NCBI GenBank assembly: GCA_024398595.1
Contig: JAKSIX010000001.1
Location: forward strand, 9,873 to 73,872
DNA: 64,000 bases
From: Bacteroidaceae bacterium
GTDB lineage: Bacteria; Bacteroidota; Bacteroidia; Bacteroidales; Bacteroidaceae
Direction of reading: 5' to 3'
Below, piece after piece: positions 28,526 to 38,000 of this stretch. The notes under the pieces were generated by a model, which was given only the letters and a program-made list of their open reading frames with translations, was not told where the DNA came from and did no database searches. Within the stretch, counting starts at the first letter, position 1. Each line of letters opens with the position of its first letter. Both the position numbers and the translations under genes were made by a program.

Positions 28526-31276
28526 ATGCGTAATCTGAAATTCATACTCCTCCCGATGATAATGTTCCTCGCACAGCCTTGCGCTGCAGCGGAAAAAACC
28601 GGTCTGTGGGGCAAACTGAGAGAGTCATTCTACAGTAACCTGATATTGGAGAACCGCTACATGCTGATTCTGGACGGATTGAAGACCACTCTGATAATCA
28701 CGCTTTTTGCCGTAATACTCGGCACGCTGCTGGCAGGTCTGATATGCTGGATGCGTATGAGCCGTAACAAATGGCTGTCCGGCTTCGCCAGATCATATAT
28801 TTTCATAGTACGCGGCACACCTGTACTGGTGCTGCTTATGATTATGTTCTATGTAGTTCTGGCATCATCCAATGCATCGGGAGTACTCGTATCCATCATC
28901 ACCTTCGCACTCAACTCCGCCGCATACTTCGCCGAAATGATGCGCACCAGCATACAGAGCATTGAGAAAGGCCAGACCGAAGCCGGTCTCTCACTCGGTC
29001 TCACCAAGACACAGACCTTCATGCACATTGTCCTTCCTCAGGCGGCACGCAATGTCATTCCCGTATACATAGGTGAGGTCATCAGCCTCCTGAAAGGTAC
29101 AGCCATAGTCGGATACGTAGCCGTCATCGATATGACCAAGGCTTCGGACATAATCAGGGCACGCACATTCGATGCATTCTTCCCCCTACTGCTTACCGCC
29201 GGCATCTACCTGCTGCTCTCGTGGCTCATTATCATCTTGCTCCGATACGCCACCGGAGCGGACAGCCAGTCCCCGCAGAAAGGCAATGAAACCTTTGCCA
29301 AAGTTTTGTCCATTCTGATGATGGTATCGGTATTCACCTCGTGTGAGAGCCGGACTGGAAACGCGGAAATCACCTGCAAGGAAGACCTCAAAGGGAAGAA
29401 AGTCGGAGCATTGATGGGTGCATATTACGAAAGTATGCTCTCCGACACATACGGCACAAACAATGTAATGCTGTTCAACAATTACCCTGACGCATACGAA
29501 GCCTTGCGGAAAAAGAAACTTGCAGGTTTCTATGATGATGACGCAATGGCAATCAATGTCCTGCGGAAATACAGGGAGTTTGACACAATATCCGCCGGTA
29601 TGCCAATACTCCCTGTCGGTGCCGGATTCCACAAAGACAGTGTGGAGCTGAGTTCCCTTTTCCGGAATTTCATAGAAGAGTTCAAGGGCAGCCCGGAAGA
29701 ACAGGAAATGCACGAACGGTGGTATAACCACCCTGTTGAGGAATGTCACAGGGATATTGAAGCAATCAAATACGGCAAGCCCATATTGGTAGCCACACTT
29801 GCCAGCGTACCTCCATTCTCATTTATGTCCGACGGTGAATTGGACGGATACGAAATTGAGCTGACACGGAGATTCGCACTATGGGCAGGAAGACCTGTAG
29901 AATTTGTCACAATGGATTTCAACGCCGTTATTTCAAGCCTCATATCCGGCCGCATAGATATGTTCATGACACTCACAAACATCACGGAAGAACGGTTGAA
30001 AAGAATATCGATGGTCCAGTATATGGAGAGCCACCTGATTATTTTCATCAATACCGCCACTGATGAGAGCAAAGGCAATGCAGGTGCCACAGCCATATCC
30101 ATCATTGCACTTCTGGCAATAGCAGGTTGTATTGTCATATTCCAGACAAGGAAACGGCATAAAAGACATATACCGGCAGACCACGGCAATGACAATGATA
30201 CGATTGTCAGCATATCACACTTGCGGAAAATATACGAAGACGGAGTCACGGTTTTGAAAGACGTCAGCGCAGAAATACGGAAAGGTGAAGTGATTTCAAT
30301 AATCGGTCCGTCCGGCACAGGCAAGAGTACGTTGCTGAGATGTCTGAATCTTCTCGGCAAGCCGACGGCAGGCAGCATTCTGATAAACGGTGAAGACATT
30401 CTGGCTTCTGATGCCGATGTACCGTTGCTGAGACAGAGAATGGGAATGGTATTCCAGTCGTTCAATCTGTTCAATGGCAAGACGATACTTGACAACGTCA
30501 CACTGGCACCCGTACTTCTTGGCAGGAAAACCAAGGAAGAGGCTGAGACAAAAGCGATGGAACTGCTGAAAATGGTAGGTATGGCAAACAAGGCTTACTC
30601 ATATCCGGAGCAATTGTCCGGAGGTCAGAAACAGCGTGTCGCCATTGCCCGTGCATTGGCAATGGAACCTGAGATACTGCTGTTCGATGAGCCTACATCG
30701 GCACTTGACCCGACAATGGTAAGCGAAGTCCTCGGAGTAATCCGCACATTGGCACGCAAGGGTATGACAATGATGATTGTCACTCACGAAATGAGTTTTG
30801 CACGTGAGGTGAGCAGCCGTATTTTCTATATGGACGAGGGTACTATCTACGAGGACGGCACTCCCGAGCAGATATTTGACAATCCGCAACGCGAGAAGAC
30901 ACGCATATTCATAAACAGGATTAGGGAATGCCGGTATGAGATAACGGAGAGCCACAACGACTACTATGGAATGATGGGCAAGATTTACAATTTCTGCGTA
31001 CGCTACAATATGTCATCGCAGGAGATTGACCACATTACACATACAGTCGAGGAAGGTCTGCTGCTTCTCGGCACAAAAGACGGAACAAAAGTCGTGATAA
31101 CCCATTCCGAGAAGACAGCTGCCAAACAGGTATGCATCTCTACGCCGTGCAGAATCGAGGCAACCATACTCGACAATAGCGAGAATGCCATTCAGGCCTC
31201 CATCCTGCGTGGATTCTGCAAAACAGTCAGAATAGAGAGCGGAGACCGGGAGAGTCAGCTTATCTGCGAAATATGA
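28526..31276 (+). CDS. Single-chain polar amino acid ABC importer: permease, TM, substrate-binding domain, TM, ATPase, uncharacterised C-terminal domain
   Basis: One uninterrupted 916-aa frame. His/Glu/Gln/Arg-type permease (aa ~40-245; SIEKGQTEAGLSLGLTKTQTFMHIVLPQA). SBP_bac_3-like domain (aa ~285-510). TM helix (aa ~521-540). NBD with Walker A GPSGTGKST, signature LSGGQKQR, Walker B LLFDEPTSALD and H-loop VTHEM. About 119 extra C-terminal residues. Confidence 0.8.
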   Translation: MRNLKFILLPMIMFLAQPCAAAEKTGLWGKLRESFYSNLILENRYMLILDGLKTTLIITLFAVILGTLLAGLICWMRMSRNKWLSGFARSYIFIVRGTPVLVLLMIMFYVVLASSNASGVLVSIITFALNSAAYFAEMMRTSIQSIEKGQTEAGLSLGLTKTQTFMHIVLPQAARNVIPVYIGEVISLLKGTAIVGYVAVIDMTKASDIIRARTFDAFFPLLLTAGIYLLLSWLIIILLRYATGADSQSPQKGNETFAKVLSILMMVSVFTSCESRTGNAEITCKEDLKGKKVGALMGAYYESMLSDTYGTNNVMLFNNYPDAYEALRKKKLAGFYDDDAMAINVLRKYREFDTISAGMPILPVGAGFHKDSVELSSLFRNFIEEFKGSPEEQEMHERWYNHPVEECHRDIEAIKYGKPILVATLASVPPFSFMSDGELDGYEIELTRRFALWAGRPVEFVTMDFNAVISSLISGRIDMFMTLTNITEERLKRISMVQYMESHLIIFINTATDESKGNAGATAISIIALLAIAGCIVIFQTRKRHKRHIPADHGNDNDTIVSISHLRKIYEDGVTVLKDVSAEIRKGEVISIIGPSGTGKSTLLRCLNLLGKPTAGSILINGEDILASDADVPLLRQRMGMVFQSFNLFNGKTILDNVTLAPVLLGRKTKEEAETKAMELLKMVGMANKAYSYPEQLSGGQKQRVAIARALAMEPEILLFDEPTSALDPTMVSEVLGVIRTLARKGMTMMIVTHEMSFAREVSSRIFYMDEGTIYEDGTPEQIFDNPQREKTRIFINRIRECRYEITESHNDYYGMMGKIYNFCVRYNMSSQEIDHITHTVEEGLLLLGTKDGTKVVITHSEKTAAKQVCISTPCRIEATILDNSENAIQASILRGFCKTVRIESGDRESQLICEI

Positions 31277-32915: not shown

Positions 32916-33427
32916 TCAGACCGGTTCCATACCATATGACCACGCGCTGTATTCATCACCCAAGTCCAACATTCTGAGAAACTTTCCGGAATAGTCATAG
33001 TACTTTATCTGATAGCTCGATTCGAAGTCAATAATCACCACTTCGTTCCACACCGGATCCAATGTCCATTCGGCAATTCCGAGATACTCGTATTTGGCAC
33101 GTCCCTGATGGCTGATGTCATGCAGATAGTGTCCTGCTGAATCAAAAACCTTGATGTCATCCGTGCTCGGCTGCCTCGAACCGACAAAGAACAGTCCGTC
33201 ATCATATTTCACCCTTGATGTCAGCAATCAGAGCCTCCTTAGAAGTCCTCCAGGAACACAGGTTCCCAACTTTCCACCATCACGCCGTCAAACGACCTGT
33301 CCAAAGCAATGATGTCCTCCTCATTGATCTGGAACACGCCGTTCTCCACCTCACGACCACCACCGCCACCGCATCCGGCAAGCATCATCGCGCCCGACAC
33401 CGCCAACAAATATCGCAAACGTCTCAT
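32916..33427 (-). pseudogene. Frameshifted and 3'-truncated remnant of a BF3164-like (6-bladed beta-propeller) lipoprotein gene
   Basis: ORF 33239-33427 encodes a lipoprotein N-terminus (LAGCGGGGG). The continuation, ORF 32916-33227, is in a different frame and has only a TTG pseudo-start. The two total ~165 aa, against my recollection of ~350-400 aa for this family. The segment IKVFDSAGHYLHDISHQGRAKYEYLGI resembles the family repeat. Confidence 0.45.
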
Positions 33428-33531
33428 AATTCAGGGACTGTTATCGTTCACACAAAAATACTGATTTTGCTGGAAACATCCGTCATTACGTTGCTCCCAT
33501 TTTCCTTCGAGCTCTGTTTCTCATTTTTCAA

Positions 33532-33717
33532 AGTGTGCGCACACTCCCTCATTTTTCACCTTCGCAACTCACTGCTAATCAACACAATCCTTACAACATC
33601 TTCCAATACAGTGCTCACACTACCGAATTACCACCATTGTGCGCACACTCATGATAACAAAACATAACGTGGATATGCCACAAAACGTACAATAATAGGC
33701 GAGTGTGCGCACACTCG
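33532..33717. repeat. REP-like palindrome cluster A (3 copies of the GTGTGCGCACAC core)
   Basis: AGTGTGCGCACACT at 33532-33545, ATTGTGCGCACACT at 33636-33649 and the perfect 18-mer CGAGTGTGCGCACACTCG at 33700-33717. A degenerate copy CAGTGCTCACAC is at about 33609-33620. Lies just downstream of the RAYT-like gene's stop. Confidence 0.85.
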
Positions 33718-33742
33718 ACTATTTTGGAAACAAGCCGTCAAC

Positions 33743-34651
33743 TCAATTTTTAAGAAAATGCAGCTCCACAGATCTCATACGTAGGATTCTGGCTATCCGG
33801 TTTACAGATGCGTTAGTCTTTTTCTTCAAATGAACTGCAATTATCCTCTTCTGTTCTTTGGTTAATTGATTCAACTGGTTGACACTGAACTTTGTCGCAG
33901 CTATGTTTGATGCCTCCGAAACCAATTCATCGTCACTAAATTTCAAGTGCACTTCAACGTATCTTGCTTCTTCAGAGGCGGACTTCGTCATCAGAATTGA
34001 ACGGAAGAAATCAGTCTTGCTGCCGAATATCAATTCTACGGATTCAAAATCGACAAACGACTTGAGAAGCAGATTATTCTGATTATCAATCACAAAGCCT
34101 GATTGTTTGAGGTCGTGTCTCGTTCTCAGTGCTGTTCTAATCTGTCGCACCGGCAATGAAGACAGAGCCACTTCGCCATAATCAGTAGAAATGCCGCCGA
34201 AATATACATTGAATGAAGACCATTGGTAATCCTCAGGACGACTTACGACGTGCGGAACAACAGGATTCATCAGTACATATGAAATGCAATTCCGCAAGTA
34301 ATACAAATCATCAATCTCTTTAGGCTTTGCATTTACATCGCGATAAATCATTGACATACCATGCTCTAAGTACATATATCTGCCATAATCACGTTTGAAT
34401 CCAATGGCAAACATTCGCGCTTGAGCAAATGTTTTGCACCTGATAACAAAGTGCGAATGAGAGGACATATGGCAGAAGCATAGTATTTTTACTCCTGTCA
34501 CATAGGCCGTAATTGCACTAATTATAGTTGATTGCCTGTAATCAGCAACACTTGTGTGCACTATACCGTTTGACAGCCCATCAGTACACACGTGAAAGAA
34601 CAATTCAGATTTTGAAATTTCAATAGGGATAGGATGTTTTTCCATAAGCAT
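33743..34651 (-). CDS. HUH/Y1 transposase-like protein (IS200-like/COG1943, REP-associated tyrosine transposase type) with a C-terminal DnaA-like HTH
   Basis: HUH-type motif CFCHMSSHSHFVIRC. Tyrosine-motif region YYLRNCISYVLMNPVVPHVVSRPEDYQWSS, which matches the pattern Y..NP......P.dY.WSS. C-terminal KEQKRIIAVHLKKKTNASVNRIARILRMRSVEL resembles the DnaA C-terminal HTH. Flanked by palindrome clusters. Confidence 0.7.
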   Translation of the reverse strand: MLMEKHPIPIEISKSELFFHVCTDGLSNGIVHTSVADYRQSTIISAITAYVTGVKILCFCHMSSHSHFVIRCKTFAQARMFAIGFKRDYGRYMYLEHGMSMIYRDVNAKPKEIDDLYYLRNCISYVLMNPVVPHVVSRPEDYQWSSFNVYFGGISTDYGEVALSSLPVRQIRTALRTRHDLKQSGFVIDNQNNLLLKSFVDFESVELIFGSKTDFFRSILMTKSASEEARYVEVHLKFSDDELVSEASNIAATKFSVNQLNQLTKEQKRIIAVHLKKKTNASVNRIARILRMRSVELHFLKN

Positions 34652-34682
34652 TTCTTAGTATCAGATTATCGTGATAAATGTA

Positions 34683-34690
34683 CAAATCTA
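34683..34690 (-). promoter_or_regulatory. Candidate -7 box (TAnnTTTG on the minus strand) for the RAYT-like gene
   Basis: CAAATCTA on the plus strand equals TAGATTTG on the minus strand, 32 nt upstream of the ATG at 34651. Confidence 0.35.
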
Positions 34691-34718
34691 TTTCCAATTA
34701 ATGCTCCATTATCGCAAA

Positions 34719-34757
34719 CATTTCGAGAGTGAGCACAGTTCATCACCTCTCGAAATG
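34719..34757. other. Perfect 11-bp stem hairpin upstream of the RAYT-like gene
   Basis: CATTTCGAGAG (34719-34729), a 17-nt loop, then CTCTCGAAATG (34747-34757). Confidence 0.7.
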
Positions 34758-34801
34758 TACATTACTGAGATACAGCCTGTTAGGAATCGCACTATGAGTT
34801 G

Positions 34802-34916
34802 ATTGTGCGCACACTGGCAACGGACAGGGAGTGTGAGCACGCCGACGCAAGCCCATTTCCGACACCGCACATTATCAAGCAATTAGCGATGGCAAAACGA
34901 CCGAGTGTGCGCACAC
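34802..34916. repeat. REP-like palindrome cluster B (2 copies of the GTGTGCGCACAC core)
   Basis: ATTGTGCGCACACT at 34802-34815 and CGAGTGTGCGCACAC at 34902-34916. A degenerate copy GAGTGTGAGCAC is at about 34829-34840. Lies upstream of the RAYT-like gene. Confidence 0.85.
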
Positions 34917-35044
34917 ACCACAGGAAGGGAAACGAACCGCTCTGCGTCAGGCAAACGGAAACGCACAATGAATAAGATGCCGACAGCACATACTGTGAAC
35001 TGCCGGCACCTTATCGTAAAAACTAACCGGTCAAGCTGTAGGGA

Positions 35045-38000
35045 TTACCACTCCATCTTGCTCATACGGATGTAAGAGGCATAACGCTTCTTGGCCATCT
35101 CTTCAGCCTTGTCGAAGAGCTCCTGAGCCTCGGCCGGGTACTGCTTCATTACGGAAGCGTAGCGGACTTCGCCCTTCAGGAATTCCTGGAACTTATCCCA
35201 CTGTGGCTCCTTTGAGTCAAGAGAGAACGGATTCTTGCCCTCTTCCTCTAAAGCCGGGTTATAACGCCACAGATGCCAGTAACCGCACTCGACTGCGGCA
35301 GCCTCCTCGGCCTGCGCCTTCCCCATACCCTTCTTCAGACCATGATTGATACACGGAGCGTAGGCAATTATGATGGACGGTCCAGGATAAGCCTCAGCCT
35401 CACGTATAGCCTTCAGACACTGTGCATTGTCGGCACCCATTGCAATCTGAGCGGCATAAACGTAACCGTATGTGGTGGCAATCATACCGAGATCCTTCTT
35501 GCGGACGCGCTTGCCGCTTGCAGCGAACTTGGCGATTGCGCCGAGAGGTGTTGACTTCGAAGCCTGACCGCCGGTATTTGAATATACCTCAGTATCAAGT
35601 ACAAGGATGTTGACATCCTCACCGCTTGCTATTACGTGGTCAAGACCGCCGTAACCTATATCGTACGATGCGCCGTCGCCACCTATAATCCACTGACTGC
35701 GTTTGATCAGATAATCCTTGCAGTCCAGAATCTGCTTGCAGGTATCGCAGCCGCATGCCTCGCAGCCGGCTATAATCTTCGGAGCAAGAGCCTTGGTAGC
35801 CTCTGCATCGTTTTTCTTCCCAATCCACTCGTTAAACAGAGCCTTCAGCTCATCTGAGCAGCAGGTGCAGCTCTGAGCCTCACCCATCAGACGCTCCAGA
35901 CGCATACGCATCTTGCGGTTTGCGAGCTGCATACCCATACCGTACTCACAGAAGTCCTCGAACAGTGAGTTTGCCCAGGCAGGACCGTGACCTTCCTCGT
36001 TCTTGGTATAAGGAGTGGAAGGAATCGAGCCGGAATAGATTGACGAACAGCCTGTAGCGTTCGATGCAATCTCGCGGTCGCCGAACAGCTGCGATATGAG
36101 TTTCAGATACGGAGTCTCACCGCAACCTGAACAGGCGCCTGAGAACTCGAACAGAGGAGTAGCGAACTGTGAGTTCTTCGCGCTCTGCTGTATGTCAATA
36201 AGGTTCTGCTTTGACTTGACATTCTTCACGCAGTATTCCCAGTTTGCAGCCTCTGCCTCCTGTCCCTCGAACGGAACCATTGTGAGGGCTGAGCCACCGA
36301 GTTTCGGATTGCCCGGACATACATCGGCACAGTTGCCGCAACCGAGACAGTCCATAACGCCCACCTGCATACGGAATCTCATGCCCTTGAATGCGGCCGG
36401 AGCCTTCATCTCAAGAGTCTCAGCCTTGAAGCCTGCAGCTTCCTTCTCGTCCATTACGAACGGACGGATACAAGCGTGAGGACAGACGTATGCGCACTTG
36501 TTGCACTGTATACACTTCTCCGGATCCCATACAGGTACGAATGCGCTTACACCGCGCTTCTCGTATGCGGCTGTACCTGATGGCCATGTACCGTCTATGC
36601 TCTCCTTGAATGCGCTTACCGGGAGCAGGTCACCGTTCTGGGCATTGATAGGACGAACCACTTCGTTGATGAATGCAGGGTCATCGTTTGCAGCGGCAGC
36701 CGGAGCCTCAAGTGAAGCCCAAGCCGGATCAACAGTCAGTTTCTTATATTCGTCACCGCGGTCTACAGCTGCATAGTTCTTGTTGACCACATCCTCACCC
36801 TTCTTGCCGTAGGACTTGACGATAAACTTCTTCATCTGCTCAATGGCAAGATCTACCGGGATAACTTCGGTGATACGGAAGAAAGCAGACTGCAGAATGG
36901 TGTTGGTACGGTTGCCCAGACCAATCTCCTGAGCAATCCTGGTGGCATTGATATAATATACAGTAATGTCGTTCTTCGCGAAATATGCCTTGACATTCGC
37001 AGGCAGGTTGGCTGCAAGCTCCTCCTCGTTCCAGATGGTGTTCAGCAGGAATGTACCGCCTTTCTGGAGTCCGCGTGTGACATCGTACATCTTCAGGTAT
37101 GCCTGAACGTGGCAAGCCACGAAATTCGGGGTATTGACCAGATATGTGGAGCGTATAGGGCTGTCGCCAAAACGCAGGTGTGAGCAGGTGAAACCGCCCG
37201 ACTTCTTTGAATCGTAGCTGAAGTAGGCCTGGCAGTGCTTGTCGGTGTTGTCACCGATAATCTTGACAGAGTTCTTGTTTGCACCTACTGTACCGTCAGC
37301 ACCAAGTCCGTAGAACTTTGCCTCGAACATTCCCTTGCCACCGAGAGCGATTTCCTCGCCCTGTGGCAGAGAGGTGAATGTGACATCGTCCTTGATACCC
37401 AATGTGAACTGATTCTTGGGCTGTGCCAATGACAGATTAGCATAGACAGCCAGAATCTGGGCTGGAGTGGTGTCGTGTGAGCCGAGACCGTAACGGCCGC
37501 CCACGATGACAGGGTTGATGGCCTTCAGCTCTGTGCTCTGCGCGAATGCCTCGACAACATCCAGATACAGAGGCTCGCCATTTGCGCCCGGTTCCTTGGT
37601 ACGGTCAAGTACAGCAATACGCTTCACTGTCTTGGGCAGTACGGCACTCAGATACTTGACTGAGAACGGACGATACAGATGGACTGCCACGATACCGACT
37701 TTCTCACCCTTCTCTGTCAGATAGTCGATAACCTCCTTGGCAGCCTCGGTGACTGTACCCATAGCTATAATCACACGCTCCGCGTCCTCTGCACCGTAAT
37801 ATGTGAAAGGCTTGTACTCGCGGCCTGTAATCTTGCTGATTTCCTTCATATAGTCAGCGACAATGTCAGGAACAGCCTCATAATACTTGTTGCATACCTC
37901 ACGGTGTGTGAAGAATGTATCGGGGTTCTCAGCCATACCGCGCATTACCGGATTGTTCGGATTGAGGGCACGCTCACGGAACTCCTTCAGAGCCTGCCGG

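Follow-up and report, generated by a model that had tools for sequence, protein, structure and literature searches.

How are a 302-amino-acid open reading frame (ORF) and the GC-rich palindromes crowded around it related, and what kind of system do they form? The question arises in a 64-kb stretch of the genome of a Bacteroidaceae bacterium (GenBank assembly GCA_024398595.1, contig JAKSIX010000001.1, positions 9,873 to 73,872 of the forward strand), which is the whole stretch of DNA that we analysed and is hereafter called the window. An initial annotation had read ORF 33743-34651, on the minus strand in window coordinates, as a Y1/HUH gene resembling the REP-associated tyrosine transposases (RAYTs), flanked by cognate palindromes similar to repetitive extragenic palindromic (REP) sequences. 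The motifs of the protein, its matches to the Protein Data Bank (PDB) entry 4er8 and the repeats themselves support this reading. We favour a system of the REPtron or TIRtron type, in which a single-copy, vertically inherited Y1 HUH enzyme of the RAYT/TIRYT type lies among its cognate GAGTGTGCGCACACTC repeats, and we put the probability of this explanation at roughly 75%.

The palindromes are tied to the ORF by their distribution. Five copies of the core TGTGCGCACA are present in the window (at 33534, 33638, 33704, 34804 and 34906), each no more than 270 bp from the ORF, against a chance expectation of 0.09 copies, and none of 100 dinucleotide-preserving shuffles gave five. The 8-mer GTGCGCAC is likewise restricted to these five sites, and degenerate forms of the core (GTGAGCAC or GTGCTCAC) are found at 33611, 34729 and 34833 only, all within the locus. 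The consensus of the repeat is a symmetric, perfect palindrome of 16 bp, GAGTGTGCGCACACTC. Eight repeat units are thereby packed into 1.4 kb, with three full copies and one degenerate copy downstream of the gene and two of each upstream; of the outermost copies, the downstream one begins 209 bp from the stop codon and the upstream one ends 264 bp from the start codon. The initial annotation had described five cores found nowhere else in the 64 kb, a perfect 18-mer and two or three degenerate copies, all within 220 bp downstream and 270 bp upstream; this description was accurate, the degenerate copies numbering three. In order along the window, the units and a promoter-like element between them are as follows.

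33531..33546, no strand: full palindrome AAGTGTGCGCACACTC, the downstream-most copy, between 11-bp direct repeats
33607..33622, no strand: degenerate copy with core GTGCTCAC at 33611, with a full copy on each side of it, both downstream of the gene; position kept in relatives
33635..33650, no strand: full palindrome ATTGTGCGCACACTCA, from the exact-match search
33701..33718, no strand: perfect 18-bp palindrome CGAGTGTGCGCACACTCG, just downstream of the gene, 25 nt from the stop codon
34683..34690, minus strand: promoter-like TAGATTTG, 32-39 nt upstream of the ATG, within a block conserved in three lineages
34724..34740, no strand: degenerate copy GAGAGTGAGCACAGT inside a hairpin with a 10-bp stem; its GTGCTCACTCTC motif is kept in relatives
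34801..34816, no strand: full palindrome ATTGTGCGCACACTGG, from the exact-match search
34828..34843, no strand: degenerate copy GGAGTGTGAGCACGCC; position kept in relatives
34903..34918, no strand: full palindrome GAGTGTGCGCACACAC, the upstream-most copy, directly after the terminator hairpin of the pyruvate:ferredoxin oxidoreductase (PFOR) gene; from the exact-match search

The Bacteroides -7 promoter consensus is TAnnTTTG; TAGATTTG fits it and may serve as a promoter element. Some further details of the intergenic DNA deserve mention in their own right. The downstream-most palindrome lies between two identical 11-bp direct repeats, CTCATTTTTCA (33520 and 33548), giving the succession CTCATTTTTCA, AAGTGTGCGCACACTCC, CTCATTTTTCA over 33520-33558. 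The pair resembles a target-site duplication around a 17-bp insert, a product not expected of HUH enzymes; the pair is present in L001, a locus of the same species, and missing at the equivalent copy of the related locus L003. Just upstream of the conserved promoter-like block, a hairpin formed by ATTTCGAGAG...CTCTCGAAAT (34715-34785, minus strand; -14.3 kcal/mol as single-stranded DNA (ssDNA), z = -5) holds one of the degenerate copies. Its stem is not kept in L003 or in a second relative, L179, whereas its GTGCTCACTCTC motif is. An operator of the CRP type (TGTGA-N6-TCACA) was considered for the palindrome and rejected by eye on account of its wrong spacing.

The ORF encodes a protein with an N-terminal nuclease domain and a long C-terminal extension, in which we delimit the following parts.

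33743..34651, minus strand: RAYT-like gene, 302 aa, with an N-terminal Y1 HUH nuclease domain and a helical C-terminal region ending in a helix-turn-helix (HTH); from the ORF, the family alignment and the AlphaFold (AF2) model
34196..34609, minus strand: Y1 HUH catalytic core, residues ~15-152, with HSH at 65-67, Tyr125 in Y-x3-NP and a WSS tail motif; from the alignment, Foldseek and the profile
33746..34189, minus strand: C-terminal extension, residues 155-302, helical, its last ~70 residues HTH-like; from the model and weak matches of homologs

The translation contains SHSHFVI and YVLMNPVVPHVVSRPEDYQWSS, confirming the HUH-type motif and the Y...NP...WSS-type pattern that the initial annotation had picked out. 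A word-indexed homology search returned 60 family clusters, and an exhaustive profile search extended the family to 422 clusters (50% identity) at E ≤ 1e-30 and to 5655 at E ≤ 1e-10, nearly all of the top 150 profile matches being full-length at 280-320 aa. Residues H65, H67, Y125 and N129 are invariant in both family alignments (26 and 51 sequences), and Y142 is invariant in the smaller and nearly so in the larger; in the 26-sequence alignment S145 and S146 are also invariant and P130 nearly invariant. The signature Y-x3-N-P, present here as Y125-V-L-M-N129-P130 and followed by the SS tail motif, defines class 2 (TnpAREP-type) of the TnpAY1 proteins, classes 1 and 3 having Y-x3/4-Q (Quentin et al. 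2018, PMC6006769).

The predicted fold points in the same direction. For the AF2 model of the 302-aa protein (pLDDT 88), the top PDB match in Foldseek was 4er8, a structure of E. coli TnpAREP in complex with a REP hairpin (E 1.9e-4, TMt 0.57), and the next matches were ISDra2, IS608, IS200 and Sulfolobus TnpA, all with a probability of ~1.0. Among PDB entries, 4er8 was also matched best by the profile of 51 sequences (A5; E 0.008); in this match the columns of HUH, Y-x3-NP and WSS were aligned and the H65/H67/Y125 columns were set against the HMH and Y motifs of TnpAREP. A PDB search with the single sequence of the 302-aa protein gave a designed repeat protein (E = 8) as its only match, and the first profile (A1) matched protein A repeats in the C-terminal helices, a spurious result; the broader A5 was needed to reach 4er8. 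Taken together, these data support the assignment of the protein as a Y1 HUH enzyme of the RAYT type, belonging to a large and divergent family of ~300-aa proteins.

Residues 155-302 are conserved and helical, and the isolated C-terminal model has a pLDDT of 80.5. Weak matches to Sigma70_r4_2 and HTH_5 in the C-termini of homologs make a C-terminal HTH plausible; HTH_23 was matched by 2 of 26 homologs, at E 0.15. The more specific suggestion that this HTH is DnaA-like found no confirmation: neither the 302-aa protein nor 36 family members matched Bac_DnaA_C, hhalign against E. coli DnaA domain IV, whose sequence was entered by hand, gave a probability of 0.1%, and Foldseek with the isolated C-terminal model returned no match with E < 0.6, the DnaA domain IV structures 2hcb and 3pvp being among its weak matches (E ~1, probability 0.66-0.77, ~70 aligned columns). 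Because of these three results we have dropped the term DnaA-like and kept HTH.

The pairing of gene and palindromes extends well beyond the window. In the window, as in L003 (85% protein identity) and L179 (75%), the PFOR gene has the RAYT-like gene as its immediate downstream neighbour, and this synteny is kept across 75-100% protein identity; the homolog in L008 (52% identity) is beside the PFOR gene too, but on its opposite side. When the three lineages are aligned, the 16-mers stand out as invariant islands in diverged intergenic DNA both upstream and downstream of the gene, and the degenerate copies hold their positions. The arrangement of two plus three full copies is the same in L003-L007 and in L179. 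More distant homologs are flanked by other repeats: AGTGTGGCCACTCC hairpins in L008, a repeat with 15-bp arms (AATATGCCCACTATC) in L009, a ~90-nt direct repeat containing a long hairpin on both sides of the gene in L010, CCCACTCCC...GGGAGTGGGCAA on either side of the gene in L300, GGAGTGTGCACACC in L301 and ATGTGGCCGCTGTA hairpins in L302. A loose shared core, AGTG(N)GGC / GTGNGCAC, is visible among flanking repeats of the family, and the arms of the hairpins beside distant homologs are 11-28 nt apart, giving long loops. Beside each homolog there is a lineage-specific repeat, and this co-variation is the hallmark of RAYT/REP pairs.

The gene itself has evolved as a constrained, resident gene. 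The ratio of nonsynonymous to synonymous substitution rates (dN/dS) was 0.078 and 0.054, with saturated synonymous sites (dS 1.2 and 2.9). Synteny that is conserved at dS > 1, together with a dN/dS of 0.05-0.08, fits vertical inheritance. The 64-kb window contains one copy of the gene, and a 286-aa subfamily (P0046) is found in one stable housekeeping context in many samples. With low copy number and vertical inheritance taken as the criterion of domestication, after Bertels 2017, the RAYT-like gene, which is under strong purifying selection and single-copy in the window, is probably a domesticated gene and not an active insertion sequence (IS). Selection acts on the repeats as well as on the gene.

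To follow the repeat outside its locus, we scanned one genome per species, 596 Gb in all, for the exact 16-mer; the window's own contig was not among the matches. There were 104 matching stretches, 13 of them in four Bacteroidaceae metagenome-assembled genomes (MAGs; JAZUJU01, JAKSIW01, JAKSIS01 and JAZLKB01). The other ~90 stretches are single matches in unrelated taxa, and the four that were checked all fall inside long ORFs; their number is in keeping with chance, for which we estimate ~140 matches of a 16-mer palindrome in 596 Gb. In the Bacteroidaceae MAGs, the 16-mer is present on 7 contigs of JAZUJU01 and 4 contigs of JAKSIW01, always in intergenic DNA, JAKSIS01 contains the locus of the orthologous gene, and JAZLKB01 a single intergenic copy. 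These copies are mostly clustered between long ORFs, with recurrent spacings of 55, ~103 and ~150 nt and partial copies between them. In JAZUJU01 a ~240-nt composite element with two full and two truncated palindromes recurs on 3 contigs at ~95% identity, each time with unique flanks. A metagenome scan for the L010-type hairpin showed that it adjoins a family gene in 8 loci and is solo elsewhere, at least three of the solo hairpins being clearly internal to contigs. This hairpin belongs to a ~110-nt nested palindrome, often lies at contig ends and has after it a T run resembling that of an intrinsic terminator. The repeats are thus similar to REPs and bacterial interspersed mosaic elements (BIMEs), of moderate abundance and not in hundreds of copies, and their dispersal is known from the related MAGs.

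A side observation concerns assembly. Contigs often end in or beside the repeats, as at the end of L225 and the start of L273 (JAZUJU01 contigs 156 and 024) and in many of the loci L279-L299, which suggests that the repeats break short-read MAG assemblies and that repeat counts from MAGs are underestimates. A link to phages was also considered and rejected, the 40 isolated single 14-mer matches in viral contigs being at chance level.

Natural alleles of the locus differ by rearrangements that end in palindromes. Relative to L003, L002 has lost precisely what lies between the first and the third downstream copies. In L218 (JAZUJU010000146.1, 5800-6000), whose PFOR gene has 89% nucleotide identity to that of the window, the PFOR gene and its terminator are followed by one palindrome and then by unrelated genes (an MsrA/B-like ORF), with no RAYT-like gene between them; the left flank of this palindrome matches the left flank of the first upstream copy in L003, and its right flank matches that of the last downstream copy in L003. 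L280 is a gene-less, one-hairpin allele of the L279 locus and relates to it as L218 does to L003. The window, L002/L003 and L218 have different DNA after the last palindrome, so the cluster is the site of a rearrangement breakpoint. A rearrangement of another kind separates L008 and L301, which carry homologs of ~50% identity: a segment consisting of ffh (SRP54) and the RAYT-like gene is inverted between L008:8447-10933 and L301:1878-4311 relative to the neighbouring 143-aa, 211-aa and C_GCAxxG genes, and one of the breakpoints is next to the hairpins downstream of the gene.

By analogy with E. coli TnpAREP and the TnpA of the IS200/IS605 family, we propose a mechanism by which the enzyme might act on these repeats. 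A single-stranded copy of the palindrome would fold into a small hairpin with a stem of 6-7 bp and a GCGC loop, and the N-terminal HUH domain would bind this hairpin in ssDNA. With a metal ion held by His65 and His67, Tyr125 would cleave the DNA through a 5'-phosphotyrosine link and rejoin it to another copy, while the C-terminal HTH region probably contributes DNA binding or targeting. Repeated cutting and rejoining between copies would cause palindrome-bearing segments to spread, to be duplicated and to be deleted. We infer that the protein is catalytically active on an ssDNA substrate and that the enzyme, rather than host recombination, is the cause of the rearrangements.

Several observations weigh against this interpretation. 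First, the 302-aa protein has no match in Pfam at E ≤ 1, Y1_Tnp (PF01797) included, and scores 19.8 bits against the NCBIfam REP_Tyr_transpos cutoff of 80. A match to Y1_Tnp, expected from the initial annotation, is missing for this protein taken alone; among its relatives, 22 of 26 homologs match Y1_Tnp weakly (best 9.8e-6), and 4 of 10 more distant family members exceed its gathering threshold (28-31 bits versus 23 bits). On the strength of this family evidence, that is, the matches of the homologs, the profile and Foldseek, we override the formal miss. Second, in the window clade the HUH motif has Ser at its middle position, which is atypical, a hydrophobic residue being expected, and the family alignment lacks the Trp motif that is conserved in class-2 TnpA proteins. 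Third, the hairpins of single copies are short and weak when folded as ssDNA (-1.8 to -6.5 kcal/mol), the most stable being that of the 18-mer CGAGTGTGCGCACACTCG at 33701-33718 (-6.5 kcal/mol). Fourth, no guide tetranucleotide of the GTAG/CGTC type lies beside the palindrome, and >30 copies from four genomes show a symmetric GAG...CTC extension only, with no conserved asymmetric tag. Fifth, the remaining 62 kb of the window hold no further copy of the palindrome, so that the dispersal foreseen in the initial annotation is seen in the related MAGs (on 7 and 4 contigs) and not in the window, and JAZUJU, the genome richest in dispersed copies, has no gene at the syntenic site or in its examined 8-kb pieces. 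Lastly, deletions from palindrome to palindrome could equally stem from host recombination or replication slippage.

The weakness of the single-copy hairpins and the perfection of the duplex palindrome therefore make recognition of duplex DNA by an HTH dimer a live alternative, or complement, to hairpin binding; the long-loop hairpins beside distant homologs favour hairpin recognition as the theme of the family as a whole.

A more far-reaching possibility, which we regard as doubtful but worth stating, is that the cassette is itself mobile by REP-to-REP recombination, that the HTH reads the duplex palindrome and positions the HUH domain, and that the family, instead of being purely domesticated, forms a distinct, still-active class borne by REPs. 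Cuts at equivalent positions in two direct copies of the palindrome would release a circle containing one palindrome and the gene and would leave one palindrome behind, the state found in both L218 and L280; any solo palindrome could later serve as a point of re-entry for the circle. If true, this would explain both the presence of the gene on either side of the PFOR gene and the piling up of breakpoints at the clusters, and it would involve a dual recognition of duplex and single-stranded DNA, a mode not described for RAYTs.

It is improbable that the locus is an autonomous insertion sequence of the IS200/IS605 type, in which the gene and its flanking hairpins form one mobile unit that moves as ssDNA. 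Such an element would have the Y1 HUH fold that the enzyme has, and it would account for the presence or absence of the gene with boundaries exactly in the repeats (L218 versus L003, L280 versus L279) and for the opposite position of the gene relative to the PFOR gene in L008. However, the window has a single copy, whose synteny is kept at dS > 1 with a dN/dS of 0.05-0.08, and the gene is bordered on both sides by several identical, symmetric palindromes instead of by a left and a right end that differ. One palindrome is left at the 'empty' site, whereas excision of the IS608 type takes the hairpins of both ends; there are repeat clusters at other loci that lack the gene; there is no tnpB gene; and the protein has Y-x3-NP in place of Y-x3-Q.

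We also think it unlikely that the palindromes are double-stranded operators for an HTH-bound dimer in local regulation or autoregulation, with an HUH domain that is irrelevant or inactive and nothing being mobilised. A perfect, loop-less 16-bp palindrome is what the operator of a dimeric HTH protein classically looks like, there are copies close to the conserved promoter-like block, the C-terminal HTH region of the protein is conserved and the ssDNA hairpins are weak. Yet the same 16-mer is found at unrelated intergenic sites and in multi-copy composite elements of related genomes, three full copies are downstream of the gene, the long-loop hairpins of distant homologs, with arms 11-28 nt apart, are ill-suited to a dimeric operator, and the catalytic HxH and Tyr residues are invariant under strong purifying selection.

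The idea that the repeats are host elements (terminators, mRNA stabilisers or sites of another protein) or were spread by another enzyme, their adjacency to the gene being incidental or due to hitch-hiking, draws on the copy ~25 nt after the stop codon, the terminator-like T run of the L010-type hairpin and the many copies in JAZUJU with no gene at the syntenic site, but it has very little chance of being right given that eight units lie in 1.4 kb with none elsewhere in 64 kb and that adjacency recurs, with a repeat of its own each time, in every lineage examined (the window, L003, L179, L008, L009, L010, L300, L301 and L302).

Elsewhere in the window, a 916-aa ORF (28526-31276, plus strand) appears from its translation, read by eye, to be a fusion of an amino-acid ABC (ATP-binding cassette) permease, a periplasmic binding-protein-like domain, a further transmembrane segment, an ABC ATPase and a ~150-aa C-terminal domain; its C-terminal end resembles one seen in L218:7509-7958. 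An Rfam scan of 33200-35200 gave as its sole match mir-2763 at 33291-33343 on the minus strand, in or next to a small ORF; at 27.7 bits against a gathering threshold of 50 it is almost certainly spurious.

REP/RAYT systems have so far been studied almost entirely in Proteobacteria. The initial annotation had called them poorly described in Bacteroidales, which needs qualification: subclasses 2.4 and 2.6 occur in Bacteroidetes (Quentin et al. 2018, PMC6006769), and what stands is that our full-text literature searches found no description of such a system in Bacteroides. The repeats of the present system are likely assembly and rearrangement breakpoints in Bacteroidaceae MAGs, and the family falls below standard annotation thresholds, large and divergent though it is. 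Unusual features are a very short, perfectly symmetric 16-bp palindrome without a guide tetranucleotide and the existence of natural alleles with rearrangements ending exactly in the repeat. The gene and its repeat also offer a tractable enzyme/substrate pair with which to study the recognition of a perfect, untagged palindrome by a Y1 HUH enzyme and the role of the HTH extension.

Among known systems, E. coli TnpAREP (YafM/RayT; subclass 2.2 of Quentin and group 2 of Bertels; 4er8) is the best structural and profile match of the window family. The two have in common the HUH motif, the Y-x3-NP signature and the SS tail motif, and the window locus is like the E. coli REPtron in that a single-copy gene lies between cognate palindromes whose repeat is also found in other intergenic sites, often in BIME-like clusters. 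In contrast to TnpAREP, the window protein is about twice as long because of its ~150-aa C-terminal region with the HTH, has Ser as the U of HUH, lacks the Trp motif and scores below the Pfam and NCBIfam thresholds. Its repeat has neither the bulge nor the GTAG of the E. coli REP and, being a perfect palindrome of 16 bp, forms much shorter stems. The host, moreover, is a member of the Bacteroidaceae and not of the Proteobacteria.

In its architecture the window family resembles the TIRYTs, subclass 2.1 of TnpAY1, which are long RAYT-like proteins with a C-terminal HTH (Bac_DnaA_C, HTH_23, HTH_28) and the SS motif (PMC3733652, PMC6006769). Their repeats lack GTAG; among them are self-complementary ones of moderate abundance that form dimers or clusters (Di Nocera 2013, PMC3733652). 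The window family likewise has a long protein, the SS motif and clustered, self-complementary repeats without GTAG, together with a C-terminal region in which an HTH is plausible. Quentin et al. 2018 reported no REP-like sequences beside subclass 2.1 genes (PMC6006769), whereas the window family has obvious and dispersed flanking repeats, and no member tested matches Bac_DnaA_C. The TIR consensus GGGGWSAS was not evident in the flanks, which were read by eye, and the Y motif of the window family is YVLxNP, not YIELNP or Y[IV]HLNP.

Subclass 2.6 (Bertels group 5), which is found mainly in Bacteroidetes and comprises short RAYTs with 'atypical secondary structures' (PMC6006769), shares its phylum with the window family. 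Its proteins have a median length of 179 aa, no large C-terminal domain and the motifs NH[LIV]H, WQ and YIH[QN]NP, compared with ~300 aa and other motifs here. With the IS200/IS605 TnpA (IS608, ISDra2) the window family has in common the Y1 HUH fold and, by analogy, would share the logic of ssDNA hairpin recognition; those enzymes differ in their class-1 Y-x3-Q, in being multi-copy and mobile with distinct left and right ends, and in their length of ~130-150 aa without an HTH extension. The window family thus combines the long architecture with a clear REP association, in gut and rumen Bacteroidales, and extends the known concept of REP/RAYT pairs.

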